A stretch of DNA of 64,000 nt, from assembly GCA_963674945.2 (NCBI GenBank), contig CAXXWQ010000003.1:1184001-1248000 (forward strand), given 5' to 3'. Below the pieces are notes generated by a model. That model was not told the origin of the DNA and ran no database searches. It worked only from the letters and a program-made list of their open reading frames with translations. Below are positions 11,266-33,683 of the stretch, one piece after another (positions within the stretch are counted from its first letter, which is position 1; each line of letters opens with the position of its first letter). Position numbers and translations under genes: made by a program. Origin of the DNA: an uncultured Desulfosarcina sp. (lineage in GTDB: Bacteria > Desulfobacterota > Desulfobacteria > Desulfobacterales > Desulfosarcinaceae).

Positions 11266-11416
11266 TGGTTATGAAAGGATGTTGTTCATCCTGGTGGCCG
11301 CCGCCGGTTCCGTGGTGTGAATCGTCTCTCTTTATCGTCGAAACCGTAACCGAGTGCACCGACTGTGAATGGATAATATGATGCAGACGCAAAAAGAGAA
11401 CCGACGGGAAGCATCG

Positions 11417-13975: not shown

Positions 13976-14030
13976 AATAATGGGTAATCGAGATGATGAA
14001 CAATCCAATGATTAAGTATTTCTTTTTGGC

Positions 14031-14153
14031 GCTGGTGGCGATATCCCCGAACACCACTCCCAACGCCGCGACGGCAAGCTTGACCAGTCGGCCGTCGGTT
14101 TTGTTTGGGGACTTTTCTCCTGCGGTCTTCTCCGGATTGGGAGTATTATTCAT
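14031..14153 (-). pseudogene. kup: KUP/HAK K+ transporter 5' remnant
   Basis: LAVAALGVVFGDIATS is the Kup N-terminal signature; similarity stops before the expected PLY. Confidence 0.75.
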
Positions 14154-14625
14154 TTCGGTTCGCTGATAACTGTTTTATCAGATTCAATATCTCTTGATTG
14201 GAAGGTATATCGGCCATCGAATGGCCGTAATGCACATATCGGAGCATGCCGGATGTATCAACGAGCATCTGTGCCGGCATTCTCCCCAGCTTGAAAATTG
14301 CGACCTTCTGGCCATATAACTTCAGAACAACGTGTTCCGGGTCTGGCAGCCCGATAAACGGCAAATCTTCATTTATCCAGTATTTTTCAAATGACTCGGC
14401 ATTTTCCGGTCCAACAACAACGATTTCCGTATTCAATTTGACGAAACGTTTATAGTCCTGGCGCAACTGCGCCATATGCCTTTGGCAAAACGGTCAGAAA
14501 AAACCACGGTTCAGGACCACCAGAACATTTTTTCTCTTTCTATAATCAGAGAGTGATACGCGGTTTCCATGAAAATCCGGCAGCGTAAATTCCGGAGCAT
14601 GGGTGTTCAGTTCGACTCTGGGCAT
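14146..14625 (-). CDS. peroxiredoxin-like (AhpC/TSA) selenoprotein with UxxC motif
   Basis: MPRVELNTHAPEFTLPD...RGFF-TGA-PFCQRHMAQL; in-frame TGA at 14494-14496 followed by a SECIS-like hairpin; SD AGGGGA. Confidence 0.88.
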
Positions 14626-14859
14626 GATCGTCCCCTTTCCCTGGATGCCGTTGAAGGACCATCGTTAATGTAACAATTTCTTCGAAAAACAACCAGCATC
14701 ACAAATGGAAACCGGAACTTCTTAAAAGGAGGCAACCAACGGATCTTACGTGTACAATAAAATTTTGAAACCCTTTGCGCATCTCCTGGTGACGATTGGG
14801 ATTGTTGCAGGCCGTAAAGCCGATCATCAGAAAACCAATTGATAGGATTTGGTAGAAAA

Positions 14860-15108
14860 TTAATCGAATACAGCTAAACCACATACCGGAGACCCATAGC
14901 GTAAAATACAGTTTTTGTCTTCAGCCATCGCCTGTTGCCATTTGACTTCCGCCAGACAGATAGACCGCGGCTGATCTTCATGGAGTGTATCTGTTGTTGC
15001 CGGAGGATAGCGTAAAATCCGCATAAAAATAATGGCTCCCGGGTGAAACGGCCGGGTTGTCTCGATATATGACCCGTTCCTGCAAAAGTTACGCATAACT
15101 TCCTTCAC
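14860..15108 (-). pseudogene. PilZ-like domain fragment
   Basis: NFCRNGSYIET..., LAEVKW...RYG; N-terminal RxxxR and a clear start are missing. Confidence 0.45.
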
Positions 15109-15199
15109 GCAACGCGCGTCGCCGCTGCTGGTATGGATGGTTAAAATTCCGGTTCTATACAGTGTAAGGAGCAGGTTGGGGAACCGAAAAATTCTAAGA

Positions 15200-15214
15200 G
15201 CAAGCCTTGTGCCA
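15200..15214 (-). promoter_or_regulatory. sigma54 promoter toward PilZ remnant and Prx selenoprotein
   Basis: Minus strand TGGCACAAGGCTTGC, full consensus. Confidence 0.75.
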
Positions 15215-15384
15215 TGCTATCAGTGTAATAGTCATCGATTCATCGACGTCGGCAAATGAATTGATTGTGGATATGACTTGAACACCTTTTGCATTTCAAA
15301 AAAAAGTGATCGGATCCGGACCCGAAAGGCACAATTGCCCTGAAGGAACATTACTGGGGACAGACAGCAAAAAGCGGTAATGGT

Positions 15385-15406
15385 ATGTCCGATTTTATTC
15401 GGACAT
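15385..15406. promoter_or_regulatory. palindromic putative enhancer (bEBP binding site)
   Basis: ATGTCCGA-N6-TCGGACAT between two divergent sigma54 promoters; degenerate copy near 15418. Confidence 0.55.
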
Positions 15407-15562
15407 CGAGACGTTATATGTCCAGTTTTATCCGAATTTTCGTTAGAGTTTTACAGACTGTAAAACTTCATGACAAGAAATCATGCTTTTCGATATTTTC
15501 ACCACGCATGTAAGGGATAAAGGAATAGCGAACCGTTGCGTTCATTTAGTACTTTCTCAAGG

Positions 15563-15577
15563 TGGCATTTTTCTTGC
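15563..15577 (+). promoter_or_regulatory. sigma54 promoter upstream of ferritin
   Basis: TGGCATTTTTCTTGC. Confidence 0.7.
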
Positions 15578-15821
15578 TTTTTCTTTCCTGATTTATATAA
15601 TACGGACCTACCAAAATCATTATACGGCAGCTTTCGAGAGTCCGGAACAATAACTGCAATGCATTTCGAATCGATCTTCCCATCGTCAGATACGGTCGTG
15701 ACCGATTGTGTGGATTTCTAAACACATGGCCATTCGGATTCTCAATCAACAGCCGTTTGGATAGAGATGTCAATCACCCGACCTTATCTATTCCATCCCA
15801 AGCATTTGAAAGGAGACGCCA

Positions 15822-16379
15822 ATGATTAGCGAAAAAATGAACCAGGTCTTGAACGAGCAGATCAACCGGGAGATGTATTCGGCCTACCTGTACATGGCCA
15901 TGTCTGCCCACTGCACCCGGATTGGCCTCAAGGGGTTTGCCAACTGGTTTATGGTCCAGTACCATGAGGAAATGTTGCATGCCATGAAGATATTCGAGTA
16001 CGTCCAGCGCCAGGGCGCACGCGTCACCCTGGCCGCCATTCAGGAACCGCCTGCGGACTTCGAATCCCCTCTGGACATGTTCTCCAAGACCCTGACCCAC
16101 GAACAGTTTATCACAAAGTCCATCAACGATCTCATGGAGGTGGCCATTTCCGAAAAGGATCACGCAACCCAGATCTTTCTGGAATGGTATGTGACCGAAC
16201 AGGTGGAAGAGGAGGAGAACGACAACGATATCATCGCGCAACTCAAATTCATCAAGGACAATCCCCAGGCGCTGATGATGCTGGACCGGGAACTGGCCGG
16301 CCGTATGACCACGGTGCCCACGGATTTCAGCAAAGGCGTCCAGGCGGCCATGGATGCCGCGGCCGCACCGGCTCCTTAA
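15822..16379 (+). CDS. ftnA: non-heme ferritin
   Basis: LNEQINREMYSAYLY, EEMLHA, HEQFIT, WYVTEQVEEE ferroxidase residues. Confidence 0.95.
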   Translation: MISEKMNQVLNEQINREMYSAYLYMAMSAHCTRIGLKGFANWFMVQYHEEMLHAMKIFEYVQRQGARVTLAAIQEPPADFESPLDMFSKTLTHEQFITKSINDLMEVAISEKDHATQIFLEWYVTEQVEEEENDNDIIAQLKFIKDNPQALMMLDRELAGRMTTVPTDFSKGVQAAMDAAAAPAP

Positions 16380-16401
16380 TAAGGAAAAAGGGGCAACCAC
16401 G

Positions 16402-18120
16402 ATGATGCCGAAGCGGAAACGAACCGGTGTGCTTTTCCTCTTGCTGCTTTTATTTTCGGCGAGACCGTCACTTTTGGAAGCCGGCGTCGCCGACGCGCTC
16501 AATGCCGAGCATCTCTATGTATCGGGTCGTATCACCAATACCCACGGCGAGGGGATTGAGAGGGCCGTGGTGTCGGTTGCCGTGAACGGAAACGGGATGC
16601 CCGTCGAGGAAAGTGTCACGACCGATGAGAACGGCCGCTTTGAAATCAAAATGCTTTTTCCGACAGGGCGTCTGCCCGGCGCCAGGATTCTTCTGGAGGC
16701 CAGGAAGCCTTCCTATGCGCCATCCGTTCGGTTTGCATTGAGTCCCGTGCGGGCGGAGATTCGTGAACTCGGCAGCGCTGTATTTCTTGCCGAGGCGAAT
16801 TTCAGCTTGCGAAGAGTGGCCTCGCCGGCGCTCTGGGTTTCCGCCATCGTCCTGCTGATGGTTTACGTGATGATCGGGTTCGAACTGGTCCACCGTTCCC
16901 TGGCCGCCCTGGCCGGCGCCGCCCTCCTTTTGGGATGCACGTACCTCGTGGGACCCTTTTTCCCTGAATTCAGGATTATCACCTTCGAGACCGCGGCGCG
17001 GGCAGTGGATATGAATGTGATCCTTCTGCTTTTTTCCATGATGATCATCGTCGGCATCAGCGAAAGGACCGGCATGTTCCAATGGATGGCCCATCAGTGC
17101 TACCGCCTTGCCGGCGGTCGGGTGTGGCTTTTATCCGCCATGTTGATGACCGCAACGGCCGTCACCTCCGCTTTTCTGGACAATGTCACCACCATGCTGC
17201 TTATCGTCCCCGTCACACTTCAGATTGCGCAAGCCCTTGCAATCAAACCCGTTTCCCTGCTTTTGCCACAGGTGTTCGCATCCAATGTCGGCGGTACGGC
17301 CACCCTCATCGGTGATCCGCCGAATATCATGATCGGATCCTACACCGGTCTTACCTTTCTCGACTTCGGCAAGAATCTGGGACTCCCTATCCTGATCGTT
17401 TTTGGAGCCACCGTTGCCTTTTTCCTGTTCTATTACCGAAAGGACTATCGTTTTGCCGGCGCTGGCAACGGCAAACTTGCCGGCAGCTTTTCCATACTGG
17501 ACCGTCGGCTCTTGCTCCTATCGATGATTTTCCTGGCGATGACCATCTTGCTGTTTGTTTTGCACGGTACCCTCAAGATGGAACCGAGCATCGCCGCACT
17601 CATCGGTGCAGCGATGCTGCTCATCACCAGCCGGGTGAATCTGGCCGAATTGCTGGAAACCAAGATCGAATGGTCCGCCCTGGTTTTTTTTGCCGCACTC
17701 TTCACGGTCATCGCCGCGGCACAGGAGAGCGGTCTGATCCAATTGATCGCCGACGGCGTCAAATCCGTCTCCGGTGATTCCCTGGTCATCGCCGTTCTCA
17801 TGGTGTTATGGGTATCGGCCATCGCTTCCGCGATCATCGACAACATTCCCTATACGGCAACCATGCTTCCGGTTGTGGCCTATCTTTCATCCACCGTTCC
17901 GGGAGCCAGACACGGTATTCTTTGGTGGGCACTGGCCATGGGGGCCTGCCTGGGGGGAAACGGCACCATGATCGGCGCCAGCGCCAACGTGGTCACCGTA
18001 GGACTGGCCGAAAAGGCCGGCCACCGGATTACCTTCATGGCATACCTGAGAGTCTGTCTGGTCCCCATGGTGATTTCCATTGGAATCAGCACAATCTGGC
18101 TGCTGGTCATGATCCGATAA
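16402..18120 (+). CDS. ArsB/NhaD/SLC13-type ion permease with N-terminal periplasmic beta-sandwich
   Basis: SAFLDNVTT, SNVGGTATLIGDPPNI, GGNGTMIGASAN; signal peptide and carboxypeptidase-regulatory-like N-domain. Confidence 0.88.
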   Translation: MMPKRKRTGVLFLLLLLFSARPSLLEAGVADALNAEHLYVSGRITNTHGEGIERAVVSVAVNGNGMPVEESVTTDENGRFEIKMLFPTGRLPGARILLEARKPSYAPSVRFALSPVRAEIRELGSAVFLAEANFSLRRVASPALWVSAIVLLMVYVMIGFELVHRSLAALAGAALLLGCTYLVGPFFPEFRIITFETAARAVDMNVILLLFSMMIIVGISERTGMFQWMAHQCYRLAGGRVWLLSAMLMTATAVTSAFLDNVTTMLLIVPVTLQIAQALAIKPVSLLLPQVFASNVGGTATLIGDPPNIMIGSYTGLTFLDFGKNLGLPILIVFGATVAFFLFYYRKDYRFAGAGNGKLAGSFSILDRRLLLLSMIFLAMTILLFVLHGTLKMEPSIAALIGAAMLLITSRVNLAELLETKIEWSALVFFAALFTVIAAAQESGLIQLIADGVKSVSGDSLVIAVLMVLWVSAIASAIIDNIPYTATMLPVVAYLSSTVPGARHGILWWALAMGACLGGNGTMIGASANVVTVGLAEKAGHRITFMAYLRVCLVPMVISIGISTIWLLVMIR

Positions 18121-18316
18121 ACACTTCACACCCGACATGAAGGCACCAACCGAGGCCATCGCTTGAGTAAGAGAATGAAATTTCAATATTTTACTTCTTT
18201 GTTTTTTACGTTTCCCTTGGTAATTTTTATTGCACGTTTCCAAAAGCCGCCACCACTAATGGAGAAACTGTAAAAAGAAATTATTTCGATATTGTTCGGA
18301 AGATAAAGGTGATGAA

Positions 18317-18592
18317 TTGGGTTCATTGGTGATCATCAAAGAGCTGCTGACATGGCGGGCTGCCGTTGACATCCTGCTGATTACGGCACTGCTGTTCTTT
18401 TTGTACCACACATTGCTTCGCTTGGGAACATGGGCCATATTCACCGGTATTTTGCTGGCCATGGCCTTTTTTTCGTTGCCAATTTTCTCGACCACCGTGT
18501 TTTGCAAGATCATCGCACCACCGGCAATTCAACCGGTGGACAAACGCTGGCCGGATGTCCAGGTCACGGTCGAAGTTTCACCCATCCCGTGA
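18317..18592 (+). pseudogene. internally deleted diadenylate cyclase (CdaA-like) remnant
   Basis: WRAAVDILLI..LFFLY..L..GTW resembles the CdaA TM N-terminus; frameshift, then a short soluble tail; no DGA/RHR catalytic domain. Confidence 0.55.
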
Positions 18593-18643
18593 TTTGCGGT
18601 AAATCAAACATTTGTTGTTGTCCAACACAAAGGGAGACGAATC

Positions 18644-19090
18644 ATGTTTACGAAAATCCTTTTCCCCACCGACTTTTCAGACAATGCGCAGCGGGCGGTA
18701 GCGTATATCAAACAATTGAAGGAGGCGGGAAGCCAGGAGGTGGTGCTGCTGCACGTCATCAACCAGCGCATTATCGACGGGTTGACCCGCCATGGCGTGT
18801 TGGAAACCGACGCTGAGAAGTGGAAAAAAGGCGTCAAGGCCGTTGCCGAGGAATCCCTGGGTGAGATCGGTAATTCCTTGGAGAAAGTCGGTTTCTCGGT
18901 CAAACGCATTATCAAAACCGGTTATCCCTCGAGCGTTATTCTTGATTTTGAAAAGCAGGAGAAGCCGTCGATTATCGTCGTCGGTTCCCATGGCCGCTCG
19001 AATCTCACCGACATGCTGTTGGGATCCGTATCCGATCGGGTGATTCGAAAATCCAAGTGTCCGGTGCTGGTGGTCAAACGAGACGACTAA
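18644..19090 (+). CDS. universal stress protein
   Basis: KILFPTDFS...IVVGSHGRS...LGSVSDRVIR. Confidence 0.93.
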   Translation: MFTKILFPTDFSDNAQRAVAYIKQLKEAGSQEVVLLHVINQRIIDGLTRHGVLETDAEKWKKGVKAVAEESLGEIGNSLEKVGFSVKRIIKTGYPSSVILDFEKQEKPSIIVVGSHGRSNLTDMLLGSVSDRVIRKSKCPVLVVKRDD

Positions 19091-19095
19091 AAAAA

Positions 19096-22029
19096 ATGAA
19101 ACGCTGTATCTCACGTTGCTGTTACAAACTCGTGCTGGTTCCCTGGCTTGTGTTCGCCCTGCCATGTATCTCCTTTTCCCAGAGCCACACACCTGAATCC
19201 CTTACCGCCATGATCCGGCAGTTCAAACTCGATCCCAAAGGACCGTACAGCGCCATCGGCTGGTTCTGCCCGGACGGCACCATCCTTGCCGCCCAGCTGC
19301 GTTGCAACGGTCCGGGCGGACACCAGCATGCCGTCTTGAAACCGGCAGTAAAGCAATTGGCCGAAGCCGAAGGGCTCTATTGGGGACAGATACTTGCAGG
19401 GACACCCCATGGGGATTTCCTTGATGTCGAAAGACAATTCGACCGTCTCAAACAGTACCAGATGGAGCGGTATCTTCAACGGGTGGACGACGGATGGATA
19501 CTGCGCCAGGCCCGCTATTATCGCGGCGCCATCCAGTTCGAGGACGAATCCGCCTGGGGCGTCGAATTTTTCAAGGCGATCCTCGCAGACGATCACCTGG
19601 TGACGTCTCAGTTTTTTCTCATGCGTCAATGCGCCAGAGATATTCCCCATTTTGCCGATGACGGAAGGTGGAAGAAAATCCGTGCGGACGCCCAGGCCAT
19701 CGCAGAGGCCGAGCCCTCGTTCACCCCCCTTCGGATCAAGCTTCACGGTCAACCCGACCCCAAAGACACAAATTTGCTGGGACGTTTTCTGGCCGATCAT
19801 GACGACCTGCCTTCTCCTCTCAAAGATAAGATTCGGCAACTGATTCTCGATGTCGACGATGCCTTTGGCACCGGAAGGAATAAGGTGCTGGAAAGCTTCG
19901 CTCCACGACTTTCCAAGGAGAGCGAAAGCCTGCGGATGCTTGCCGATCTTATCAATATCATCGGCTCTTCGAAAACCGGTGAATCAAACGACAGCCGGAG
20001 AATGAGAAGAAAGGAACTGGCCGCACTCCTGGAACAACTCCGTGCGGATATCCTCATACAGGATTCTCCCGTCAAGCGATTGGCCATGTTTGACCTCTCC
20101 ACAACCGTGGAAACGGAATTGTTCATGGAGAGCGTCGCCTGGCATCCCGCCACCGTGAAGGAATTGCTTGAAAAAATCGCACTTCTGACAAAGGCTTGCA
20201 TGGGGGCCGGTTACCTGGAACAGTGGGAGTGGATGCAGGTGGCGCCGTTTCTCGCCGATCCGTCCGGAACCAATCCGATGGATCTGAAGCAGCTGACGGC
20301 CATCGGGGAGACCGCCCGCCGGATAACCGACTGGGGTGCGGCCATGGTGCGGGCCCACTACGCGGCCCTGACGAAGCGGTATCGGGAATTCGAGCCCAAG
20401 GCCGCCGGATTCATGGACGACCGGATCAGGGATTCGCTGCTTTTGCCCCTGGGTGATGCCGTCTCCCGTCTGCATGCATTGATTGCCACGTTGGGCGTCG
20501 GCTCCTCCCGAGTCATGGATCTGACCGACACCTCCGGGATTCGGGGGGTGAATCCGGGTGTCGCCACGGGCACCCTGGTAGTAATGGACAATGCCCTTCT
20601 GGATAGCGCCTGGTCTGCCAGGGATATCGTCGTGATGCGACATGCGCCGCCGGATCTCAAACCGGTGGCCGGTATCGCAACGGTCGGCGAAGGTAACATC
20701 GTCTCCCACGTTCAACTGCTGGCCCGCAACCTGGGCATTCCCAACGCCGTCATCGCCGAAGCCGACTTGGAGCGACTCCGTTCCCACGCCGGAAAAACGG
20801 TGTTTCTTGCCGTCTCTCCGGGGGGAACGGTGGTCATGAAGACGTCCGAAACCATGACTTCGGAGGAAAAATTCTTATTCGAAAGCCGCCGCCCATCCGA
20901 AGAGCGTATCCATGTGCCCATGGATCGAATCGATCTTGAACGGGTCATGCCGGTCCCCCTGGTGGAACTCACAGCATCGGATTCCGGACGTTGGTGCGGT
21001 CCCAAGGCCGCCAACCTGGGTCAACTCAAACACGATTTTCCCGACCATGTGGTCAACGGGTTCGTCATTCCCTTCGGCGTCTTTCGGCGGCATATGGATC
21101 AGACGATGCCGGAAACCGGCATCTCCTATTGGGACTTCTTGCAGCAGACCTTCGTGAACAATCCGGAGAAGAAGTTGGAATCGGCCGGTCGGGAATCCGA
21201 AATTCTGGCACGTCTCGGCTATCTTCGTCAGACAATGAATCGCATGCCCCTCATGCCGGATTTTGTGGAGGCCGTCCGATCCTGTTTCATCGATCTTTTG
21301 GGGGCGCCCATGGGACAGTTGCCGGTGTTCGTGCGTAGCGACACCAACATGGAGGACCTCAAGGACTTTACCGGTGCCGGGCTGAACCTGACCGTCTTCA
21401 ATGTCAGGGACGAAGACCGTATTTTTCAGGCCATCCGGGACGTGTGGGCATCGGCCTATTCCGAACGCAGCTTTCTCTGGCGACAGCGATTGTTGACCAA
21501 TCCGGAAGCCGTCTATCCATCCATCCTCATCATACCCTCCGTAAGGGTCGACAAATCCGGCGTGATCATCACCACCGGTCTCTCCGGCGGCTGCCCGGAC
21601 GATCTTACGGTGGCATTTTGCCGCGGTGCGGGAGGTGCCGTCGAGGGACAGATGGCCGAAACGTACCGGCTGTCACCGGGCGAACGGACGCTGCTGCTCT
21701 CTCCGGCCCGGGAAATCATGTACACCGTGCTGCCCGAAACCGGAGGCGTGGACAAGGCAATGACCGGTTTCGACAAGCCCGTTTTGAGCGAGACGGAACG
21801 GATTGCATTGCATGAGATGGCGCAAACCATCCGGCGGCGACTCGCCGAACCGCATGGCGGCGCAAACGGTCCCTGGGACATCGAGTTGGGTTTTCAGGAC
21901 GGTCGCATCTGGCTGTTTCAGGTCAGGCCGTTCGTGGCGAACAAACTGGCGAAATCAATGACCTATCTGGACAGCCTGGATCCACCCCTGCAGAACCGAA
22001 AAATCGCCATGGATATGGCCTTGCCATGA
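19096..22029 (+). CDS. exported PEP-utiliser/PPDK_N (dikinase-like) protein
   Basis: Signal-peptide-like N-terminus; phospho-His motif SHVQLLARNLGIPNA; ATP-grasp motifs GPKAANLGQL, VRSDTNMEDL..FTGAG, DIELG...LFQVRP. Confidence 0.85.
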   Translation: MKRCISRCCYKLVLVPWLVFALPCISFSQSHTPESLTAMIRQFKLDPKGPYSAIGWFCPDGTILAAQLRCNGPGGHQHAVLKPAVKQLAEAEGLYWGQILAGTPHGDFLDVERQFDRLKQYQMERYLQRVDDGWILRQARYYRGAIQFEDESAWGVEFFKAILADDHLVTSQFFLMRQCARDIPHFADDGRWKKIRADAQAIAEAEPSFTPLRIKLHGQPDPKDTNLLGRFLADHDDLPSPLKDKIRQLILDVDDAFGTGRNKVLESFAPRLSKESESLRMLADLINIIGSSKTGESNDSRRMRRKELAALLEQLRADILIQDSPVKRLAMFDLSTTVETELFMESVAWHPATVKELLEKIALLTKACMGAGYLEQWEWMQVAPFLADPSGTNPMDLKQLTAIGETARRITDWGAAMVRAHYAALTKRYREFEPKAAGFMDDRIRDSLLLPLGDAVSRLHALIATLGVGSSRVMDLTDTSGIRGVNPGVATGTLVVMDNALLDSAWSARDIVVMRHAPPDLKPVAGIATVGEGNIVSHVQLLARNLGIPNAVIAEADLERLRSHAGKTVFLAVSPGGTVVMKTSETMTSEEKFLFESRRPSEERIHVPMDRIDLERVMPVPLVELTASDSGRWCGPKAANLGQLKHDFPDHVVNGFVIPFGVFRRHMDQTMPETGISYWDFLQQTFVNNPEKKLESAGRESEILARLGYLRQTMNRMPLMPDFVEAVRSCFIDLLGAPMGQLPVFVRSDTNMEDLKDFTGAGLNLTVFNVRDEDRIFQAIRDVWASAYSERSFLWRQRLLTNPEAVYPSILIIPSVRVDKSGVIITTGLSGGCPDDLTVAFCRGAGGAVEGQMAETYRLSPGERTLLLSPAREIMYTVLPETGGVDKAMTGFDKPVLSETERIALHEMAQTIRRRLAEPHGGANGPWDIELGFQDGRIWLFQVRPFVANKLAKSMTYLDSLDPPLQNRKIAMDMALP

Positions 22030-22163
22030 TCCGTCCATGACCCGGATTCGTTGTATTCAAAGACCTGCTTTTGGATATCCGGCCCATGATCGGATATCCA
22101 GACCGCCTGCTTTGCGGGTGGTCGTTGACCGGACCGGTTGCCAACCTCGAAGGAGTAGATTCC

Positions 22164-23450
22164 ATGGTGCCTGCCTTTTCCATAAATCGATACTTTTGCA
22201 CATTTTGCATTCTCTTTGCCATTTTGGTCGTCGTGGGAAACAAATTCCCGGCACATGCCTACCCCATGGATGGTTACGAGACTACCGGAATTCGCCGACT
22301 GGTCTATCTGCAGCGGGTCCAGAGCGGTCAGATCAACGGTCCCGTAAGGCCCGCCGGCGCCTTGAAGGGCATGGCGGAGATCCGGTTGAATCTGACCGAC
22401 GCCCCAAACAACCTGCTCGATAGATTGCCTTCACCGGATGTCCAACTACAGGCCCGGCTGGAGGCCCTGTTTCCAAACCGGGACGAAAGTTATTCGGTGA
22501 TGGTGCTGGACATCACCCCGGGAAAGCCCTGGCGCCTGGCCGGCCGCCAGGCCGACCGCTCCTTTTCACCGGGAAGCGTCGGAAAACTGGCCATCGCCGC
22601 CGGCATCTTCACGGAACTGGCACGTATTTTTCCCGACGATCCTTCACGGCGTCAGGCCCTGTTAAAAGAGCGCCAGGTGGCCGGCGGCCCCTGGATCCAC
22701 ACCGACAGTCACCCGGTGCCCATCTTCGATCCGGATTCCAATCAACTGACATCGAGACCGGCCGAGGAGACGGATGTCTTCTCTTTATACGAGTGGATGG
22801 ACCACATGCTTTCGGCAAGCGCCAACGCGGCGGCCAGCGTGGTGTGGAAAGAGCTGTTGCTCATGCGTCAATTCGGGCAGAATTATCCGCCGACAATGGA
22901 ATTGGAACGCCGGTTTTTCGATCAAACGCCGAAAGGGTATCTGCGGGACACGGCCATGTCCACGGTCAATGACCCATTGCGGGCCATGGGCATCGACCAG
23001 GCCCAGTGGCAGCTGGGCAGCTTTTTTACCTCGGGAGGGAAAAAACGGGTGCCGTCCGGTGGAAAGAGCTATGCAACGCCCGAAGGGTTGATGCGCTATC
23101 TGGTAGCCATGGAACAGGGCCGGATCGTGGATCCTTGGTCCAGCCTGGAGATCAAACGTCTCATGTACATGACGGCCAAACGGATCCGCTACGCCTCCTC
23201 ACCGGCGCTGAACAATGCGGCGGTGTATTACAAGTCCGGCAGTCTGTACCGCTGCAAGCCCGAACCGAATTTCAAGTGCATGAAATATCATGGGAATGTG
23301 GAAAATGTGATGAATTCCGTGGCAATCGTGGAGCAGCCGGACGGTCGCGTCTACCTGGTGACCCTCATGTCCGACGTGAGATATAAAAACTCCGCCGTGG
23401 AGCACCAGAGCCTGGCCACATTTATCGATGGAATTCTCAAATCACCATAG
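22164..23450 (+). CDS. exported serine hydrolase (class A beta-lactamase/PBP fold)
   Basis: SD AAGGAG, signal ending AHA-YP; SVGK, SAN, KSG motifs. Confidence 0.82.
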   Translation: MVPAFSINRYFCTFCILFAILVVVGNKFPAHAYPMDGYETTGIRRLVYLQRVQSGQINGPVRPAGALKGMAEIRLNLTDAPNNLLDRLPSPDVQLQARLEALFPNRDESYSVMVLDITPGKPWRLAGRQADRSFSPGSVGKLAIAAGIFTELARIFPDDPSRRQALLKERQVAGGPWIHTDSHPVPIFDPDSNQLTSRPAEETDVFSLYEWMDHMLSASANAAASVVWKELLLMRQFGQNYPPTMELERRFFDQTPKGYLRDTAMSTVNDPLRAMGIDQAQWQLGSFFTSGGKKRVPSGGKSYATPEGLMRYLVAMEQGRIVDPWSSLEIKRLMYMTAKRIRYASSPALNNAAVYYKSGSLYRCKPEPNFKCMKYHGNVENVMNSVAIVEQPDGRVYLVTLMSDVRYKNSAVEHQSLATFIDGILKSP

Positions 23451-23458
23451 ATAGCGGC

Positions 23459-26287
23459 TTACGCAATGTAGCCGAATTTTCTCAGCAGCCGACCGGCGAC
23501 AATTCGAACCGGGGGATGGGCAACGGCCATCAGTTCGGCGACAAGACCGGCATACGCATCGGATTGGAGTCGTTCGATGAGGGAAAGGGCCGTAAGTTGA
23601 AGATCTGCATCGGACTCCGGAAGCATCTGGGAAAAGGCATCGAGTTGCGAAGGGACCTGACCACCGACCCGTAAAATGGTTTGTTCGATCAGAGGGTTCA
23701 CCAACGCCGTTTCCACGATGGGAATCAAGGTATGCTTCAGATCGGCTTCCAGGAGATTGTCCAGAAACTCCACGGCATTGGCGCGAAGGTCTGGCTGGTC
23801 GCTCACCACGCCGTTATAAGCCCGGGAAATATCCCCGATGGGATATTTTAATCCCAATAGTCTGAATATCCGATCCAGGTTGACATCCAGCCTCTTTTCG
23901 ATTTTTCGGGCCAGTTCAAGGCGCAGGTGGTGAAGTGCCGGATCAGACGCCGACGAGACGTTTGTCTGATGATACAATGCGGCCAGCATGTGGATATGGC
24001 ATCGAGCTTCTTGTAAAATCGCGTGAACCACTGCTTGATGGTCGAATCGAAGATCCCTGTTATGGATGCGCATATGATAGAGAACGCGGATGATTTCGTG
24101 CCGGATACATGGATCCGTTTGATTCAGATTGTCGAGCAGCACCGCCGCGGCGGCCTGGGAGTCGAATGATTCCAGGACGTCCGGGACCAGGCACCGAATC
24201 TCATGGTCCACCAGCGGATTGGCCAGACAGTTGGCCAGCAGCGGATAGATTTCGGGACCGAACTGCCGTAAGGCTTCGCCGCAATGGCCCTTCAGATCCG
24301 GTATCTTGATTGTTTCGAGGATCATCGGCACAAAGGATTCGTGGCGGGTCTCGCCTGCTGCTTTGACGGCCGCCTTGACGACATCGGAAGCCGTATCGTG
24401 CAAAAAAACGTGTAAATAGGGAAACAGCGAGGGAATGTTGGCGGCACCGATGGCGGCAACACAGATGCGCTTTTGTACCACTGTTTGATCGGGGTTCTTC
24501 TCCAGGCAAATCTGTTTGAGCAGGCCGCCGATGACATCATGGACCCGCAAGGATTCCCGTAATCGATGATTTCGCCGGCTCTCCCTGGCGGCGCAGATCA
24601 GGGCGCCGCCGCTGATGGCCATGTCAGGGCTCTTCATGAATTCCCCCAGCATGGTCTGCCGGTTCTTGCCTCCATGCCGGAAGAGGTAGTGCATGGCTTC
24701 GGTCAAAACAGCGATGTCGCTTTCGGCACCATTATCGGCGACCAATTGGCGGACCGCCGTTTGGATCCTTTGGTCATGGTACGAATAGCCGCATTTGAGC
24801 GCCTCCAATCGGACTTCGGCAGACGGATGGCCGACCAGACGGCAAAGGCTGGGCACCAGCCGTTTGTTATGGAAATTTCGGATCATCTTCAATGTCAGAA
24901 GGATCTGCTCGACATTGTCGCCGTCCAGGACCCGGATGATGTCGCCGACGATGGAGGCGTTGGGGAGAAGTGGCGGGGCTGCCGGTTCATCCGTTTCATT
25001 TTTCTCGGTCAGCGAGAAGAGAAACGCTTCGATATAAGCCTTTCTGATCTTCGTGATGAGAAAGCACCAGAGGCCGACCAGAACGATGGTTAAAATGGCG
25101 GCCGGTCTCACCGAAAGGCCGTACAGGGCGGATATGGCCAAAAGCAGAAGGCCGCCAATACCGGTGGCCGTGCTGTCCACGATGACATCGATGAAGGTCT
25201 TGGCCTGGTTTTTGATTTCCCTGGGGACCGGTAGCATGATCAGTTCCAGGGCGGCCTTGTTGACTGAATTTTTTAGGCTGCCGTCTCCCACCTTGATAAA
25301 GATCGCCGCCCACAAGGCTGGCTGAATGAGAATCAAAACAGCCCCGACGGCAATGGTCATGGGCAGGAAAAAGAGGGAGACACCCACACCGATCATTCCC
25401 ACCACGCGGCGGGTGACGAAGACCTGAATTACCAGGGAGAACAAGTTCAGGGTGGAGAGCCAGAAGCCGAAAAAGGCGGCCAACTGGTCGGCTTCTGGGA
25501 TCTGTGACGTGGCCACCACACTGAATTGGTACTCCACCAGTTTGGCCACGATCACGCTCAGCCCAATGATTCCGGCAAGAAGGCTCAGGTGACGGGAACG
25601 GGCGATGGCCACCAGAGGATGATGGGGTTCCTTGACGGCCTGCTCCTGTTGCCGGATGCGCTGAAGATGCTGGTCGTCGATGGTGTTTTGATAGAGGCGC
25701 TTTGCCAATAGAATGCAGGTGGACAGGCAGCCGGCGCCGACGAGGATCAAGTTTTCGCTTCCCACCCAATGGGCCAGCACATTGGTCAGATACCCGCCGA
25801 AAATTCCTCCTGCAATGGCACCGGCACCGACCACGCTGAACAGGCGGCGGGCTTCCCGGGGGTTGAAGATGGTGTTGGCCAGAATCCAGAACTGGGAAAC
25901 GATGATCAGTCCGGTGATGGCGGTCCAGATGTAGAGGATGAAAACCGTGTAGGACCTGAGGGAAATCGTCAGCAGCCCCGCCCACATGAGCGTCATGGCG
26001 AAAATGGAGGCCTGCAAGGTCCTTATGATCAGCCGGAAAAAATCGATGCGGTGCAACCATTTCGAATACAATGAGAGTGCCGCGGCGGCAAATACGGACA
26101 CGGCAATGAAGGCAAAGGGAAGACGCCCCGCCCCGAAAGTGGAGAGAAAAAGGGCGTTGGTCACCGGCTTGACGATCATCAAGGTGGTGATCACCAAAAA
26201 GATATAGGCGAACATGAGGGAGACCCGCAATCCCTCGCCCTGGCGGATATCCATGGACCTGCCGATCCAGTTTTTATCGATGCGCAT
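23459..26287 (-). CDS. Npt/TLC-family nucleotide (ATP/ADP) translocase fused to HEAT repeats
   Basis: N-terminal ~430-aa TM domain (KPVTNALFL, QFWILAN.IFNPREARRLF, AKTFID); C-terminal HEAT-like helices (VRLEAL, LRANAVEFLDN). Confidence 0.85.
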   Translation of the reverse strand: MRIDKNWIGRSMDIRQGEGLRVSLMFAYIFLVITTLMIVKPVTNALFLSTFGAGRLPFAFIAVSVFAAAALSLYSKWLHRIDFFRLIIRTLQASIFAMTLMWAGLLTISLRSYTVFILYIWTAITGLIIVSQFWILANTIFNPREARRLFSVVGAGAIAGGIFGGYLTNVLAHWVGSENLILVGAGCLSTCILLAKRLYQNTIDDQHLQRIRQQEQAVKEPHHPLVAIARSRHLSLLAGIIGLSVIVAKLVEYQFSVVATSQIPEADQLAAFFGFWLSTLNLFSLVIQVFVTRRVVGMIGVGVSLFFLPMTIAVGAVLILIQPALWAAIFIKVGDGSLKNSVNKAALELIMLPVPREIKNQAKTFIDVIVDSTATGIGGLLLLAISALYGLSVRPAAILTIVLVGLWCFLITKIRKAYIEAFLFSLTEKNETDEPAAPPLLPNASIVGDIIRVLDGDNVEQILLTLKMIRNFHNKRLVPSLCRLVGHPSAEVRLEALKCGYSYHDQRIQTAVRQLVADNGAESDIAVLTEAMHYLFRHGGKNRQTMLGEFMKSPDMAISGGALICAARESRRNHRLRESLRVHDVIGGLLKQICLEKNPDQTVVQKRICVAAIGAANIPSLFPYLHVFLHDTASDVVKAAVKAAGETRHESFVPMILETIKIPDLKGHCGEALRQFGPEIYPLLANCLANPLVDHEIRCLVPDVLESFDSQAAAAVLLDNLNQTDPCIRHEIIRVLYHMRIHNRDLRFDHQAVVHAILQEARCHIHMLAALYHQTNVSSASDPALHHLRLELARKIEKRLDVNLDRIFRLLGLKYPIGDISRAYNGVVSDQPDLRANAVEFLDNLLEADLKHTLIPIVETALVNPLIEQTILRVGGQVPSQLDAFSQMLPESDADLQLTALSLIERLQSDAYAGLVAELMAVAHPPVRIVAGRLLRKFGYIA

Positions 26288-26372
26288 GTGTCCGATTTTC
26301 CTGTCGCTGGTAAGGGTGGGGAATATTATCCGGCAAAGCAATTTCAGCGCACACACTGCTACCAGATGAAAT

Positions 26373-26642
26373 TCACAATGAATAACTCCGGTAATAATCC
26401 CCCCCGCCCTTGACCTTCAGATTGATGGCGACGGTGGACAGCGAAACACTGGTCAGCACGGAGATGAGGCTGGCGATGCCGATGATCACCAGCGCGCGGG
26501 CCAGGCCGGCACTGCCCACCACATATCCGGTTCGCAGGAAAAGGATGATTCCCAGGATGGTTAATATGCTCGGTGTGAAAACACCTGTAAAAGTACTCAG
26601 GGTGCCGGTGGTACTGTTACCATTCGTATTTTTTTCGTCCAT
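26373..26642 (-). pseudogene. APC/SLC12-type permease 5' remnant
   Basis: TFTGVFTPSILTILGIILFLR...KVKGGGDYY, then abrupt stop at 89 aa. Confidence 0.8.
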
Positions 26643-26704
26643 AACATCACCAGTTAAAAATCACGCTCTATTGTAAAATGAACCGTTGACTCCGTTGTTT
26701 AGAA

Positions 26705-28420
26705 TCATTCCGTGATTTTCTTTTTTTTCTCTTCCATGATTTCCTTGGTATCCAAGGCGCGGTCGAAATTATTGATTTGCTCATGGGTAAGCAGCAGATC
26801 TTTCATGCCGTAGATCTGCATCCGGCAAGATTGCGTGAACAACCGGTTTACCAAAAGAAGAGATGCGATTTCCATCTCCTGTACTTTTTCCTCGGCCACG
26901 GCGGCGAGGGTGTTTTGAATAAAACGTTTATCGGCCTCTTCGATATGCACGAAAACCGTCAACAGACTCCGGTACTGGCCTTCCTTATCCGTCATGGCCA
27001 GAATCCGGCCCATATTGTGGTAAAGTTCCACCAGGCGTTTGCGAAATAATTTATACTGGGTATTCAGATAAACATTGTCCGAACCGTCGAACTCATCCAT
27101 GTTATGCCTCACGCCTTTAAAATTTTTAATTGAATTCATCATGTTACGCGAGGCATAGATCAATCGCTCCATCTCCTTGGTTTCCGTTTCCGTTACCTTT
27201 TGGACCTGTACTTTCGAATAAAATGTAAAGATGGCGGCATGTAATAGTTTGATACTCTCATAGAGTTCTTCAAGTGTATATTTCTTCTTCCTATTGTTTT
27301 CAAACGGCAAGTCCGTGTCGAATATCAGTTTTTCATCTATTCGCAGCAATCGGAGATTGTAGAGCTGGCATTCCTGCAGCAGATGACCGATTTCTTTTCG
27401 CAGCGCGGCAATCGCCGCATCGGTGATTTCGGGAGGCGTCTGGTCAAGATATACGGTCAGAATGGTTTTGTGATCCGGATAGATCCGCGTGAGCAATCGG
27501 GAAAAGAAACTCAGAAAGGGAAAAAACAGCAGTACGCCCAGCATATTGAAAAGCGTGTGGAAGAGTGCCAGTCCCATCAGGCTGTCGGATTGAATGCCCA
27601 CGAACCACCCGATTATCCTTACAAAAACAGGAAGTCCGATAAAAGCAACCGCGCCGGTGGCGGTATTGAACACCAAATGGCTTAGGCTGACTCTTTTTTT
27701 TACGGGTACTCCGCCGATGGCTCCGAGCAAAACGGTTATGGTGGTACCGATGTTGGCTCCAATGACCATAACCGCGCCGATTTCGAAGGTTATCAGCCCA
27801 CTGTGTAGCGCAGTCAATACAATGGCGATGGTGGCGGCACTGGCCTGCATCAAAGCAGTAAAAAAAGTGCCGGCCAACAGGTAAAACCAGAGCCCGTAGT
27901 CGGGCAATTGATCCAGGCTGAAGGTTTTTGCAAAGGTCTCCACGCTGCCTTTCATGAAATCCAAACCCAGAAATAGAAAACCGAAACCGATGAACAACCT
28001 CGTAACGAGAAACGGTTTGGAAGAGGGTCTGAAAAGAATCAGGCCGACGGCCCCCAATCCGATAAACGGCAGCGCCATGCTCTCGATTTTAATCTTGAAG
28101 CCAATGGTGGCGATTATCCAGGCGGTCAGGGTCGTGCCGATGTTGGAACCCATGATCACGCCGATGGCGTTTTCCATGTTCATGACGCCGGCTCCCACAA
28201 ACGCGAGTACCATGAGCGAAACCGCCGAACTGCTTTGTAGCAGCGCGGTGACAAGGGTTCCGCTGCCGATGGCCCGCAGTCTGCCGTCCGTGTAGGTCCG
28301 GATGATGCGCCTGAAAGCCCTGCCGGATAATAATTTGACCGACTCCTCGATTAAAAACATGCCGAACAGAAATATACCGAGTCCGGCCAGCATTTTCCAA
28401 AAATCGAAATCAGCCGTCAT
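26705..28420 (-). CDS. Na+/Pi cotransporter family protein
   Basis: Duplicated QSSSA/QASAA and G(S/A)NIGTT repeats; helical C-domain. Confidence 0.92.
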   Translation of the reverse strand: MTADFDFWKMLAGLGIFLFGMFLIEESVKLLSGRAFRRIIRTYTDGRLRAIGSGTLVTALLQSSSAVSLMVLAFVGAGVMNMENAIGVIMGSNIGTTLTAWIIATIGFKIKIESMALPFIGLGAVGLILFRPSSKPFLVTRLFIGFGFLFLGLDFMKGSVETFAKTFSLDQLPDYGLWFYLLAGTFFTALMQASAATIAIVLTALHSGLITFEIGAVMVIGANIGTTITVLLGAIGGVPVKKRVSLSHLVFNTATGAVAFIGLPVFVRIIGWFVGIQSDSLMGLALFHTLFNMLGVLLFFPFLSFFSRLLTRIYPDHKTILTVYLDQTPPEITDAAIAALRKEIGHLLQECQLYNLRLLRIDEKLIFDTDLPFENNRKKKYTLEELYESIKLLHAAIFTFYSKVQVQKVTETETKEMERLIYASRNMMNSIKNFKGVRHNMDEFDGSDNVYLNTQYKLFRKRLVELYHNMGRILAMTDKEGQYRSLLTVFVHIEEADKRFIQNTLAAVAEEKVQEMEIASLLLVNRLFTQSCRMQIYGMKDLLLTHEQINNFDRALDTKEIMEEKKKKITE

Positions 28421-28476
28421 ATTGGTACCTGCCGATCCGGTTTACATCGATTCTCATACGTCCGATTTTCCTGCCG

Positions 28477-29589
28477 CTATGGGGCGGTGGGTACAGATGA
28501 TACCGGGGAACCTGGCCCCGGCCGGCTTTGCATGAGAGCGGGCGCGGTTTCGAGCGCTTTACCCGATCCTGATTTGGGTCTGCCCGTTCGTTCCATCAGG
28601 CTGTCAATGACATCGATCAGCTGTTTCATGATTTCCTCCCCCTGGGGATCTTCGATCAGGGCCACGGCGATGTATCGTCGCCAGACCGGCCCCCATATCA
28701 ACACCGAGTCGCTGTGCCATATCTTCCAAGTACCGGATTTTCTGAACAGCGCCGCTCCCGGCACGCGTTTTTCCAACGCGCCGACGAATTTGTGATGCAA
28801 TTTGGGATCGGCCAGCATTTCCAACATCTGTCCACTCCGCTCGTGACTCACCAGCTTTCCCATGGCAAGCAGATAATAGAACCGGCAAACCTGAGTGGCG
28901 GTGGCAGCATGGGAGAGCCCTTGCATCGCTTCGGGATGGCGTTCACCCGTAGCCGCATACCGTTTTCCCACCCACAATCCACCGCCCCGTTCCGGGTTGT
29001 AGAGCCGGTATTTGGGCGATTTCAATACCTTTTCAATGTAATCGAATTCCAGGCGATCGATCATGCGGGTCGCCGCCTGATTGTCCGATTTGCTGATCAT
29101 TTGTTGCATATCGTTCAGGACCTCGGGCGTCTCCTGTATATGGCCATCTTCCAACGCATGGGCAGATGCCAGGAGTACGGCGATTTTTGGAAGGCTGGCC
29201 GCATACATCATCACCCTGCCATTGATTCGCGCGAAACGCACATTTTCCGGATCACTGATATCGACGACGCCGATGGCCATTTTCTTTTCACGAATCAGCC
29301 TTCGCCATTTGGGATCGGCTTCGACCGTTTTTTTCAGGTCGGATTCCATCCGCTTATCGACGAGGTTGTACAGGGAAATGACTTCCTTTCCACGGCGGTC
29401 ATAGGGCAAGGGGACCTTGTTTGCACAATAACCGGGGGAAACCTTCGCAACAATCACAAAAAGGACGATAAAGGTGGTCTTGATGGCTGCGTTCAATGCA
29501 ATACCGGATGACACGAATTCTTCTCTTTTCGTAATGAGACCGAAATAAAAGCATCTCGTATGAAACGTGATCATGGACTTCGTTTCCAT
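28477..29589 (-). CDS. serine hydrolase (class A beta-lactamase/PBP fold)
   Basis: YAASLPK, SDN, RKSG motifs; hydrophobic N-terminal segment; start uncertain. Confidence 0.85.
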   Translation of the reverse strand: METKSMITFHTRCFYFGLITKREEFVSSGIALNAAIKTTFIVLFVIVAKVSPGYCANKVPLPYDRRGKEVISLYNLVDKRMESDLKKTVEADPKWRRLIREKKMAIGVVDISDPENVRFARINGRVMMYAASLPKIAVLLASAHALEDGHIQETPEVLNDMQQMISKSDNQAATRMIDRLEFDYIEKVLKSPKYRLYNPERGGGLWVGKRYAATGERHPEAMQGLSHAATATQVCRFYYLLAMGKLVSHERSGQMLEMLADPKLHHKFVGALEKRVPGAALFRKSGTWKIWHSDSVLIWGPVWRRYIAVALIEDPQGEEIMKQLIDVIDSLMERTGRPKSGSGKALETAPALMQSRPGPGSPVSSVPTAP

Positions 29590-29617
29590 TTTTCATGAAT
29601 CGTCATGTGTTTTGGTA

Positions 29618-29632
29618 GCAGTTTGTATGCCA
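29618..29632 (-). promoter_or_regulatory. sigma54 promoter for serine hydrolase-Na/Pi-Npt operon
   Basis: Minus strand TGGCATACAAACTGC (GG-N10-GC). Confidence 0.6.
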
Positions 29633-29847
29633 TTCTAACATCCTATCATTTATCGAAAAAATTGAGAAAACAGACATTCGAGTTCTGTTTTCCTAAAAAA
29701 ACATGACATCGCATGTCGTGAATTGGCAAAGCGGTGTGAAACGTTTTTTCGCATCTCTATCCAAACAGGTCTGTTTTTTGAACCGTGCTCAAATAATCAG
29801 TTATAATTTCAGATACAAAAACATTATTGCGCCATCATCCTCGCTGA

Positions 29848-31680
<1,833 letters not shown>

Positions 31681-31712
31681 TACTTGATCTTCACAGACAG
31701 CCTGGCAATGAA

Positions 31713-31755
31713 AAACCATGCCTTCCGATAGATTTCGGTAGGCATGGTTTGTTTT
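31713..31755 (+). terminator. intrinsic terminator after groEL
   Basis: AAACCATGCCT...AGGCATGGTTT followed by GTTTT. Confidence 0.75.
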
Positions 31756-32003
31756 GGCTACCCAATGGCCGGCTGGAAGCATAGAGCGTTCTGAATTCGG
31801 AGTTTCGAATGCAAAAAAACTTTGACAATCATAAGGATCCGAGAAAACATGAGATTGACTTGAACGATGAGCGGGCAACAACACGATAATCGCCTTGCAC
31901 CGGCCGTCATACTTGTCATCTTGTTTCTTCCAATGTAATCTCCATTTCACTCAAGGTTGATGAAATCGATTCGAAACCTACAGATAGAGGGAGAAACACA
32001 TTC

Positions 32004-33683
32004 ATGTGGCGACTTTTAATGGAAATCGTTTTATTGCTTGCAACTGCTTTCGCGATAGGCACCGTCGCCCAGCGGCTAAAACAAAGCGCGATCATCGGCT
32101 ACCTGGTGGCGGGTGCCATCGTCGGTCCGATTCTGTTCAATGCCCAGGCTGTCGAGCAGGTAGCCGAGCTGGGCGTGGCGCTGCTGCTTTTTTCCATCGG
32201 GCTGGAATTTTCTTTTTCACGCCTGCGCCAACTCGGCACCATCGCGCTGGTTGGCGGAACTTCCCAGGTTATCATTACACTGGCTGTGTATGCGCTGGCG
32301 GCGAGTACTGCCATGAATGCATCCGCAGCGGTGGTATTGGGCGCTATGGTCGCGCTGAGTTCGACCGCCGTCGTGCTGAGAATCCTGGTGGATAACGCCG
32401 CGATCGATTCGGTTCACGGACGCAACGCACTGGGAATTTTATTGCTGCAGGATGTTGCGGTCGTCCCGCTGGTATTGCTGGTAACCATCTTGACCAAAGG
32501 CGGCAGTGGTCAGGCCATCGCAATTCACATTGCCAAAACGGTGGCAGGGGCAACACTTTTGGTGATCGCCTTTTATTTTCTCTTTTACCACCTGGCACCC
32601 AGGATTCTCATGACGCGCGGTGTATTTGCCAATCGGGAATTGGTGGTCATGCTGGCGATCATTTCAGCGCTGGGCTCCATCTGGGCGGGGCATGCGATGG
32701 GTTTGTCTCCCGCGTTGGGAGCCTTTCTGGCAGGTATGCTTCTGGCCGAATCACCGTTTGCCACCCAGATACGCTCCGACATCGTCGGTATCCGCACCCT
32801 GTTCGTAACACTTTTTTTCACGACAGTGGGCATGCTGGCCAATCCCTTGTGGTTTATAAAACATCTGCACCTTGTTGCCATCGCCCTGGCTGTGGTAGTT
32901 TGTGGTAAAACAGCGATCATTTACGTCATCGTCCGAATATTGAAACATAAACCGGTCCAGGCATTGGCGACGGGTTTGACGCTGGCGCAAATCGGGGAGT
33001 TTGCTTTCGTATTGGCCAGTGCAGCGCGTGAAGGACGCATTATCGATGACAGCCAGTTTGCGCTGGTGGTTTCTGTAACCATTGTATCCATGTTTCTTGC
33101 TCCCTATCTGGTGACCAATGCCGAAGCATGGTCGACGTGGTTGTTGAAAAAACTCTTCCGCCTTCATATAACCGCTTCCGACCGGGTCTTACCCATAGGC
33201 ACCGCCGGCGGCGGAACTATTCTTATCGTCGGTTTCGGACCGGCCGGTCAGCGAGTGGCACAAACGCTGATAGATCGCCAGGTCAAGCCCCATGTTATCG
33301 AGCTTAACCCCGAAAGTGCCCAAAAGGCCCAAGCCCTTAAGTTGCCGGTATACATCGGTGATGCCACCAGTATTGAGGTGCTCGAACACGCAGGCATACA
33401 TTCGATTTGCGCCGTTGTTGTGACCCTCCCGGATCCGGCCACCGGTAGAAGTGTTATCGCCAACTGTAAGACGCTCATTCCGGAGGTGCCGGTTATCGTT
33501 CGAGCGCGTTACCACCGCCACGCAACCGATTTGAAAAAAGCCGGTGCCACAATCGTTATCGACGAGGAAGTAAAAGTGGGGGAAGCAATAGATCGGGAAC
33601 TGCAAAACCTGCTTCAGCAGCCGCAACAGGCGGCGATGGCTTGTGCCCTGGCGGGGCAGAAACCGGCCCCCGCCGTGCCATAG
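32004..33683 (+). CDS. CPA2 (KefC-like) cation:proton antiporter with TrkA-N domain
   Basis: LLFSIGLEFS, SSTAVV, QDVAVVP, LAQIGEFAF; IVGFGPAG Rossmann motif. Confidence 0.92.
   Translation: MWRLLMEIVLLLATAFAIGTVAQRLKQSAIIGYLVAGAIVGPILFNAQAVEQVAELGVALLLFSIGLEFSFSRLRQLGTIALVGGTSQVIITLAVYALAASTAMNASAAVVLGAMVALSSTAVVLRILVDNAAIDSVHGRNALGILLLQDVAVVPLVLLVTILTKGGSGQAIAIHIAKTVAGATLLVIAFYFLFYHLAPRILMTRGVFANRELVVMLAIISALGSIWAGHAMGLSPALGAFLAGMLLAESPFATQIRSDIVGIRTLFVTLFFTTVGMLANPLWFIKHLHLVAIALAVVVCGKTAIIYVIVRILKHKPVQALATGLTLAQIGEFAFVLASAAREGRIIDDSQFALVVSVTIVSMFLAPYLVTNAEAWSTWLLKKLFRLHITASDRVLPIGTAGGGTILIVGFGPAGQRVAQTLIDRQVKPHVIELNPESAQKAQALKLPVYIGDATSIEVLEHAGIHSICAVVVTLPDPATGRSVIANCKTLIPEVPVIVRARYHRHATDLKKAGATIVIDEEVKVGEAIDRELQNLLQQPQQAAMACALAGQKPAPAVP

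Follow-up and report, generated by a model that had tools for sequence, protein, structure and literature searches.

How an ATP-consuming enzyme could operate outside the inner membrane is the question raised by a gene cluster in the genome of a Desulfosarcina sp. Gram-negative envelope chemistry usually runs without periplasmic ATP. The cluster occupies positions 19096..29632 of the window, by which we mean the entire 64,000-nt stretch analyzed here (contig CAXXWQ010000003.1, 1,184,001-1,248,000), and its five open reading frames are arranged as two convergent runs (Table 1). They encode a putative exported phospho-histidine dikinase (DIK), two predicted exported serine enzymes with a penicillin-binding protein (PBP) fold (SH1 and SH2), a carrier of the nucleotide translocase family (NTT) and a Na/Pi cotransporter. 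This gene content and arrangement had been proposed in an earlier sequence-only reading of the window, and both were borne out, as each family was matched by profile at the position proposed. DIK, SH1, SH2 and NTT form one co-inherited unit, a conclusion that we regard as almost certain. The four-gene module is kept or lost jointly in many marine and sediment bacteria; no description of it was found in the literature searched, which consisted mostly of main texts available without subscription.

Homologs of DIK were used to define the module. Among 7999 candidates scored, 2116 are related to DIK at E <=0.001, and 554 representatives reach E <=1e-30. Two sets of loci were compared, the near loci (the best 80 of 567 DIK relatives from a genome scan) and the distant loci (80 of 577 metagenome loci, where the DIK subfamily is at 31-34% identity). 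SH1, NTT and SH2 are present in 75, 59 and 54 of the near loci, respectively, and SH1, SH2 and NTT in 66, 49 and 45 of the distant loci. When at least 6 kb of sequence is available downstream of DIK, all four genes are found in 52 of 62 near loci and 24 of 28 distant loci. The closest linkage is that between DIK and SH1, which are co-oriented in 75/80 near loci and often overlap. Hosts of the near loci belong to the Bacteroidota, Rhodothermia, Calditrichota, KSB1 and Deltaproteobacteria/Desulfobacterales, and cultured hosts include Maribacter, Flagellimonas, Aquimarina and Arenibacter.

The sequence-only reading would have been refuted had homologs of the dikinase not co-occurred with Npt or serine hydrolase genes. 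In 201 Flavobacteriaceae genomes, which are kin rather than independent samples, the association is all-or-none: 45 genomes contain all four genes, 155 contain none, and a single genome (G404) has DIK only, as a partial gene at a contig end. Counted by gene, DIK is present in 46 genomes, while its NTT clade, SH1 and SH2 are each present in the identical 45. Five further genomes contain solely weak matches to other NTTs (E 1e-23 to 1e-32). In G436, G475 and G407 the cluster is split, yet a single contig still carries all four genes, at separations of 73 kb to 3.3 Mb. Four genomes in which the DIK locus shows no partner each have a strong NTT elsewhere. DIK is a single-copy gene in the window's genome and is found in 2 of 301 genomes of its phylum, this one included, a rarity that suggests patchy transfer or loss.

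No fifth core gene was found. The commonest extra neighbors are ABC ATPases (15/80 distant loci), open reading frames that resemble sensor kinases as judged by reading their sequences (14/80 near loci) and an exported HAD acid phosphatase (PF03767; 11/80 distant versus 0/80 near loci). Genes of nucleoside salvage come after the module in three loci (L097:8978-15116, L101 and L105) and encode two PNP_UDP_1 phosphorylases, an acid phosphatase, a phosphopentomutase-like metalloenzyme and a pyrimidine-nucleoside phosphorylase.

The Na/Pi gene, which the sequence-only reading counted as part of the system, was rejected as a member. Although its product matches the Na/Pi cotransporter profile (E 3e-49), the gene is present in 0/80 near loci and in 0/160 related loci overall; in the closest relative (SH1 78%, NTT 67% and SH2 68% identical) SH2 directly adjoins NTT. 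Its G+C content is 0.485, as compared to 0.545-0.578 for the four core genes. Beside it lies a broken permease gene (26373-26642) that the sequence-only reading had overlooked, 80% identical over 61 amino acids to an intact long frame elsewhere in the genome (G000:C4 near 2556200), and together the two form a lower-G+C insert between SH2 and NTT. The cotransporter could recover phosphate in this genome, but the system does not depend on it.

DIK contains a PPDK-type ATP-grasp domain (PPDK_N at residues 635-951, E 2e-26) and a histidine mobile domain whose match (residues 520-563, E 0.01) is below the Pfam cut-off. The domain order is central, His and then C-terminal ATP-grasp, and the catalytic histidine, His538, is kept in 166 of 173 aligned rows. 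The N-terminal subdomain (residues ~29-157) matched no family. Cys58 and Cys70 within it are present in 160/163 and 160/162 rows, and this conservation, like that of Cys364 and Cys372 in SH1, is the pattern expected of disulfides; the C58-C70 pair is a likely disulfide. DIK was claimed in the sequence-only reading to be exported, and this now extends to the family: in a ten-residue hydropathy scan, used in place of SignalP, a hydrophobic stretch is present at the N-terminus of 213 of 238 full-length homologs, as compared to 93 of 1904 internal windows. DIK is thus predicted to cross the inner membrane, and an uncleaved anchor would place it on the same side.

The characterized enzymes that DIK most resembles in organization are the glucan water dikinases (GWD). 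As described previously (PMC13553574), these enzymes share the domain order of DIK, release AMP and Pi while phosphorylating a C6 or C3 hydroxyl, and in StGWD1 employ Glu900 and Arg904 as proposed helpers of phosphate transfer. For comparison, we collected bacterial proteins above the PF22973 cut-off, which occur in 6/301 and 8/401 genomes. One type has central domains that match the StGWD1 crystal structure (9HA9) with E 2e-90, and a second type, here called PWD-like on the basis of a motif, matches the bacterial GWD central domains with E 7e-12. The whole DIK profile and one PWD-like protein can be aligned along 730 columns (E 3e-22). With the His and ATP-grasp domains removed, DIK residues 30-470 still align with six PWD-like central domains in hhalign (score 48.6, E 1e-5, probability 82, 287 columns), as compared to a maximum of 26.3 in 30 column shuffles and 14.0 for the reversed profile; the same template scores 20.4 with a HEAT profile and 13.9 with the SH1 profile. 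Specifically, K215-L-H217...P220...D224 of DIK is aligned to the KLH motif of the PWD-like proteins, and StGWD1 Glu900 and Arg904 map to Asp441 and Arg445 (9HA9 chain positions 440 and 444, with the offset derived from R923 and W931), of which Arg445 is an arginine in 160/173 rows.

Other searches delimit this relationship. Hidden Markov model searches of the PDB with DIK gave no match to the GWD central domain (9HA9), and DIK scores 11.3 bits against a cut-off of 27 for GWD1_pHisD (PF22973), with E <1 in 2/33 members. The ESM Atlas returned GWD clusters at 0.80-0.81 for DIK, which serves as a lead only, and another Atlas query gave only PEP-utilizer clusters. For the ATP-grasp domain, similarity scores do not single out a nearest family: PWD-like proteins score 45-79 bits, GWD-like proteins 29-56 bits and the genome's own PEPS-like proteins 41-48 bits, and an archaeal PEPS scores 72 bits with another profile. 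Extending the PWD-like searches to viral contigs, to plasmids and to one family yielded nothing further. We judge the relationship between the central domain of DIK and the GWD/PWD acceptor domain to be real but remote, and DIK is taken to act in a GWD/PWD-like manner, yet to be no member of either family. The likeness consists of the domain order, the remote central-domain homology, a KxH-x2/3-P-D motif and the Arg904-equivalent arginine; the differences are a predicted signal peptide, likely disulfides, an extra 130-residue N-terminal subdomain, obligatory PBP-fold partners, the lack of a carbohydrate-binding module or Ig-like domain, and the score below the GWD1_pHisD cut-off.

DIK shares the PPDK-type ATP-grasp and phospho-His swivel domains with PEP synthase, PPDK, rifampin phosphotransferase and PigC/RedH (PDB matches of E 6e-26 to 1e-8), but its ATP-grasp domain is C-terminal and its export is predicted. 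DIK is far below all NCBIfam cut-offs, and profile searches found in it neither the PEP/pyruvate-binding barrel nor the N-terminal ATP-grasp of PEP synthase and PPDK. Against rifampin phosphotransferase it scores 52.7 bits (NCBIfam cut-off 999); it has no rifampin-binding domain and lacks the order ATP-grasp, rifampin-binding, His. The condensing enzymes PigC and RedH match DIK with E 4e-18, over the ATP-grasp domain only.

In bacterial genomes of the window's phylum, a GWD-like gene (Ig_N_CWD1, PF22973 and PPDK_N) stands in tandem with a PWD-like gene, at L203:2548-9109 and in L204-L207 and L181-L186. The PWD-like member of these pairs is fused to a xylose-isomerase-like TIM barrel, and the GWD-like protein of L184 matches the StGWD1 central domain with E 2e-90. 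There are at least 120 close bacterial homologs. The observation is relevant to how starch phosphorylation arose in plants.

SH1 and SH2 both match Beta-lactamase2 (E 1e-8 and E 2e-14, respectively) and are paralogs (E 1e-14). SH1 contains the motifs S138-V-G-K141, S219-A-N221 and K357-S-G, and SH2 contains S132-L-P-K135, S168-D-N170 and K284-S-G (numbered from ATG 29589). That the two are exported SxxK/SxN/KSG hydrolases, as first proposed, agrees with the family data: SxxK, SxN and K[ST]G occur in order in 98/98 aligned SH1 and 30/30 aligned SH2 sequences, and predicted export signals are found at the N-termini of 89/93 SH1 proteins (59/930 internal windows; 5/98 rows have no usable N-terminus) and 28/30 SH2 proteins (0/214 internal windows). 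By eye, several SH2 N-termini (L007, L010, L063, L070 and L076) have a lipoprotein-like cysteine after the hydrophobic stretch. The best PDB match of SH2 is PBP-A (E 0.001), a DD-carboxy/endopeptidase that acts on peptidoglycan (PMC11189452). The omega-loop region of SH1 and SH2, site of the class A catalytic glutamate, failed to align with solved enzymes, and neither protein matched any NCBIfam beta-lactamase family. The fold and the three motifs are those of Thermosynechococcus PBP-A and class A beta-lactamases, but the similarity is weak; SH1 is distinguished by large insertions, by a YPxD extension at its N-terminus and by two cysteines that are invariant, and across the 201 genomes searched SH1 and SH2 are found solely together with DIK. 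A PG_binding_1 domain is fused to SH1 in 12/80 distant loci. Two long matches that appeared to be DIK-SH1 fusions (P0266 and P0267) were rejected as wrong-frame or read-through products. In two Lutibacter loci (L016:13509-15413 and L079:7483-9379) SH2 is duplicated in tandem.

The carrier combines a TLC domain (E 4e-7, 29.7 bits against a Pfam cut-off of 21) with C-terminal HEAT repeats (HEAT_2, E 1e-14), as in known NTT-HEAT fusions, and its profile matches the solved plant and chlamydial carriers (PDB 9j3n and 9j3j) with E 4e-11. Its clade lacks the cNMP-binding domain, and it is proposed to export rather than import. Module-linked NTTs fall into four clades (~950, 720, 480 and 430 residues), two without HEAT repeats, all beside the same core; most distant loci carry single-domain NTTs, so the HEAT repeats are dispensable. 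This pattern may reflect either repeated recruitment or one old linked lineage. The modules of L154, L158, L159 and L168 each contain a pair of NTT genes from different clades (~720 and ~430 residues), and such pairs could be separate carriers for ATP and AMP. A second NTT of the genome (~1085 residues, G000:C1 near 234266) is unlinked and groups with unlinked NTTs. The sections of PMC5381601 drawn on connect NTT-HEAT proteins with neither a dikinase nor serine hydrolases.

We propose that NTT exports ATP into the periplasm, where DIK would form phospho-His538 from the beta-phosphate of ATP, release AMP and Pi, and phosphorylate a hydroxyl group on a sugar of an envelope glycan. This glycan is most likely peptidoglycan, and SH1 and SH2 would then process its peptide stems. 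The same carrier may return AMP and Pi; exchange of ATP4- for AMP2- plus HPO4 2- is charge-neutral, which would make the Na/Pi gene unneeded. Plastid GWD/PWD enzymes likewise rely on an NTT-type ATP supply. An exported dikinase fed with ATP is probable, and a glycan acceptor has slightly better than an even chance. Peptidoglycan is the best guess for that acceptor because both obligatory partners are PBP-like, though its chance is somewhat below even. The proposal as a whole is offered tentatively, at not quite even odds. Its most extended form is a widespread, dedicated ATP-export system with an outward-run NTT that powers a periplasmic cousin of the starch dikinases, a bacterial branch of GWD/PWD, to phosphorylate Gram-negative peptidoglycan; this we put forward with more reserve, as clearly short of even.

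Several observations weigh against the proposal. Asp441 of DIK is an aspartate in only 104/173 rows, a deeper DIK alignment matches the PWD-like domains less well (E 1e-4, probability 57), a profile built from GWD alone gives no significant match (E 0.13 and 0.056), and neither a carbohydrate-binding module nor Ig_N_CWD1 was matched in 33 DIK members. SH1 has no significant PDB match, and in the window it has no peptidoglycan-binding domain; the SH1-PG_binding_1 fusions in the tree form a single clade (7/7, support 0.90) and thus one fusion event. SxxK enzymes act on non-wall esters and amides as well. Four charged residues, K155, E245, E385 and K527, are needed for ATP/ADP exchange in AtNTT1; the window's NTT clade keeps residues like E385 and K527, but has T/V and A at the places of K155 and E245, and the charged-residue pattern varies across the four linked clades. 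NTT-HEAT proteins are widespread and, as of 2017, none had been characterized; of the NTTs outside the main clade, one is a carrier of NAD, and for another no nucleotide transport was seen in assays (PMC5381601).

The same ATP export and periplasmic dikinase could serve a different acceptor, such as a periplasmic glucan, an exopolysaccharide, part of the lipopolysaccharide, an imported oligosaccharide or a polyol, with SH1 and SH2 as esterases or amidases on its substituents. The characterized relatives of the DIK central domain do act on glucans (PMC13553574), and the peptidoglycan-binding fusion arose just once, but the neighborhoods show no recurrent gene for a glycosyltransferase, a glycosidase or polysaccharide export, and both hydrolases retain all three PBP motifs, with PBP-A as the nearest solved protein to SH2; we consider this reading unlikely. 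Quite unlikely is a periplasmic ligase or re-cross-linker driven by ATP, in which DIK would make an acyl-phosphate on a carboxylate (e.g. the end of a tetrapeptide stem) and the serine of SH1 or SH2 would take the acyl group and join it to an amine. It would give two obligatory acyl-serine enzymes a role, and it draws on the tight DIK-SH1 pairing and the PigC/RedH match; that match is confined to the ATP-grasp domain, however, no true DIK-SH1 fusion was found, and the likeness of the acceptor domain is to the GWD/PWD type, which phosphorylates hydroxyls.

The remaining readings concern the carrier. Import is the main direction of characterized NTTs (PMC5381601), and operation of the system inward, with DIK harvesting phosphoryl groups or outside nucleotides and NTT importing ATP or AMP, would accommodate the acid phosphatase of the distant loci and the salvage genes. 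This is improbable: the phosphatase is missing from the near loci and could just as well serve to clear AMP, a sugar-phosphate donor makes the water dikinase reaction effectively irreversible, a PEP-binding barrel is lacking in DIK, and SH1 and SH2 are left unexplained. Alternatively, the carrier may move NAD, the product that DIK has phosphorylated or a signal that the HEAT repeats detect, with DIK using leaked or taken-up periplasmic ATP. The variable charged residues of the linked clades and the loci with two NTT genes are compatible with this, as are the varied substrates of NTTs (PMC5381601) and the reported presence of periplasmic ATP in E. coli, which has no NTT (PMC7432876). The HEAT repeats are dispensable, however, and for an exported ATP-consuming enzyme whose constant companion belongs to the ATP/ADP-carrier family, supply is the simplest reading; a non-supplying carrier is similarly improbable.

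The proposed ATP supply bears on a wider question. The premise of the sequence-only reading that the periplasm is free of ATP was too strong, as a review (PMC7432876) gives ~24 uM periplasmic ATP per 10^10 cells of E. coli and describes the route across the inner membrane as unknown. With the module, a carrier and a consumer can be proposed and cultured hosts are at hand, so that the periplasmic ATP question becomes testable. If the proposal is correct, it would provide a function for the uncharacterized NTT-HEAT family and, for the first time, one for NTT carriers of free-living bacteria, here operating outward. It would also add an acceptor to those of the glucan-dikinase fold and define a new wall modification. 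Phosphorylated peptidoglycan may then occur in about one-fifth of the sampled Flavobacteriaceae (45/201). O-acetylation at C6 of N-acetylmuramic acid blocks lytic transglycosylases and lysozyme, and these enzymes would be blocked likewise if C6 were the site of the phosphate.

Table 1. Genes of the locus and domains of DIK, in window coordinates.
Feature	Position	Strand	Remarks
DIK, putative exported GWD/PWD-like phospho-His dikinase, 977 aa	19096..22029	+	core gene 1; export predicted
DIK signal peptide (predicted), ~residues 1-28	19096..19179	+	cleavage inferred from family A/S-Q pattern
DIK family-specific N-terminal subdomain, ~29-157	19180..19566	+	C58, C70 and YRGAxQxEDE motif conserved
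DIK central domain, 158-470	19567..20505	+	remote homolog of GWD/PWD central acceptor domain; R196, K215, H217, P220, D224, R445 conserved
DIK phospho-histidine swivel domain, ~480-600	20533..20895	+	H538 codon 20707-20709
DIK PPDK-type ATP-grasp, 635-951	20998..21948	+	K637, R747, E930, Q942, R944 conserved
SH1, class-A-beta-lactamase/PBP-fold enzyme, 428 aa	22164..23450	+	core gene 2; export predicted
NTT-HEAT carrier, TLC domain + HEAT repeats	23459..26356	-	core gene 3; likely start ATG 26287, 942 aa
Permease fragment (amino-acid/cation-chloride type, N-terminal part), 89 codons	26373..26642	-	local insert, outside module
Na/Pi cotransporter	26705..28420	-	local insert between SH2 and NTT, outside module
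SH2, PBP-A-like enzyme, SH1 paralog	28477..29589	-	core gene 4; export predicted; ATG 29589, GTG 29514 likelier start

Window positions 18000-30500 are tiled with 0 differences by overlapping contigs of one DNA run, which is possibly the window's own source. Rfam gave 0 matches at the locus, and promoter and terminator counts there are near chance level. Upstream of the module (window 11369-19090) are genes for an MprF-type lipid aminoacylase, a ferritin, a CitMHS-type permease whose N-terminal domain is periplasmic, and Usp; DIK starts 5 bases past the Usp stop, and these stress/envelope genes are not kept beside DIK elsewhere. Beyond the module, window 29875-33683 encodes GroEL and a Kef-type exchanger.

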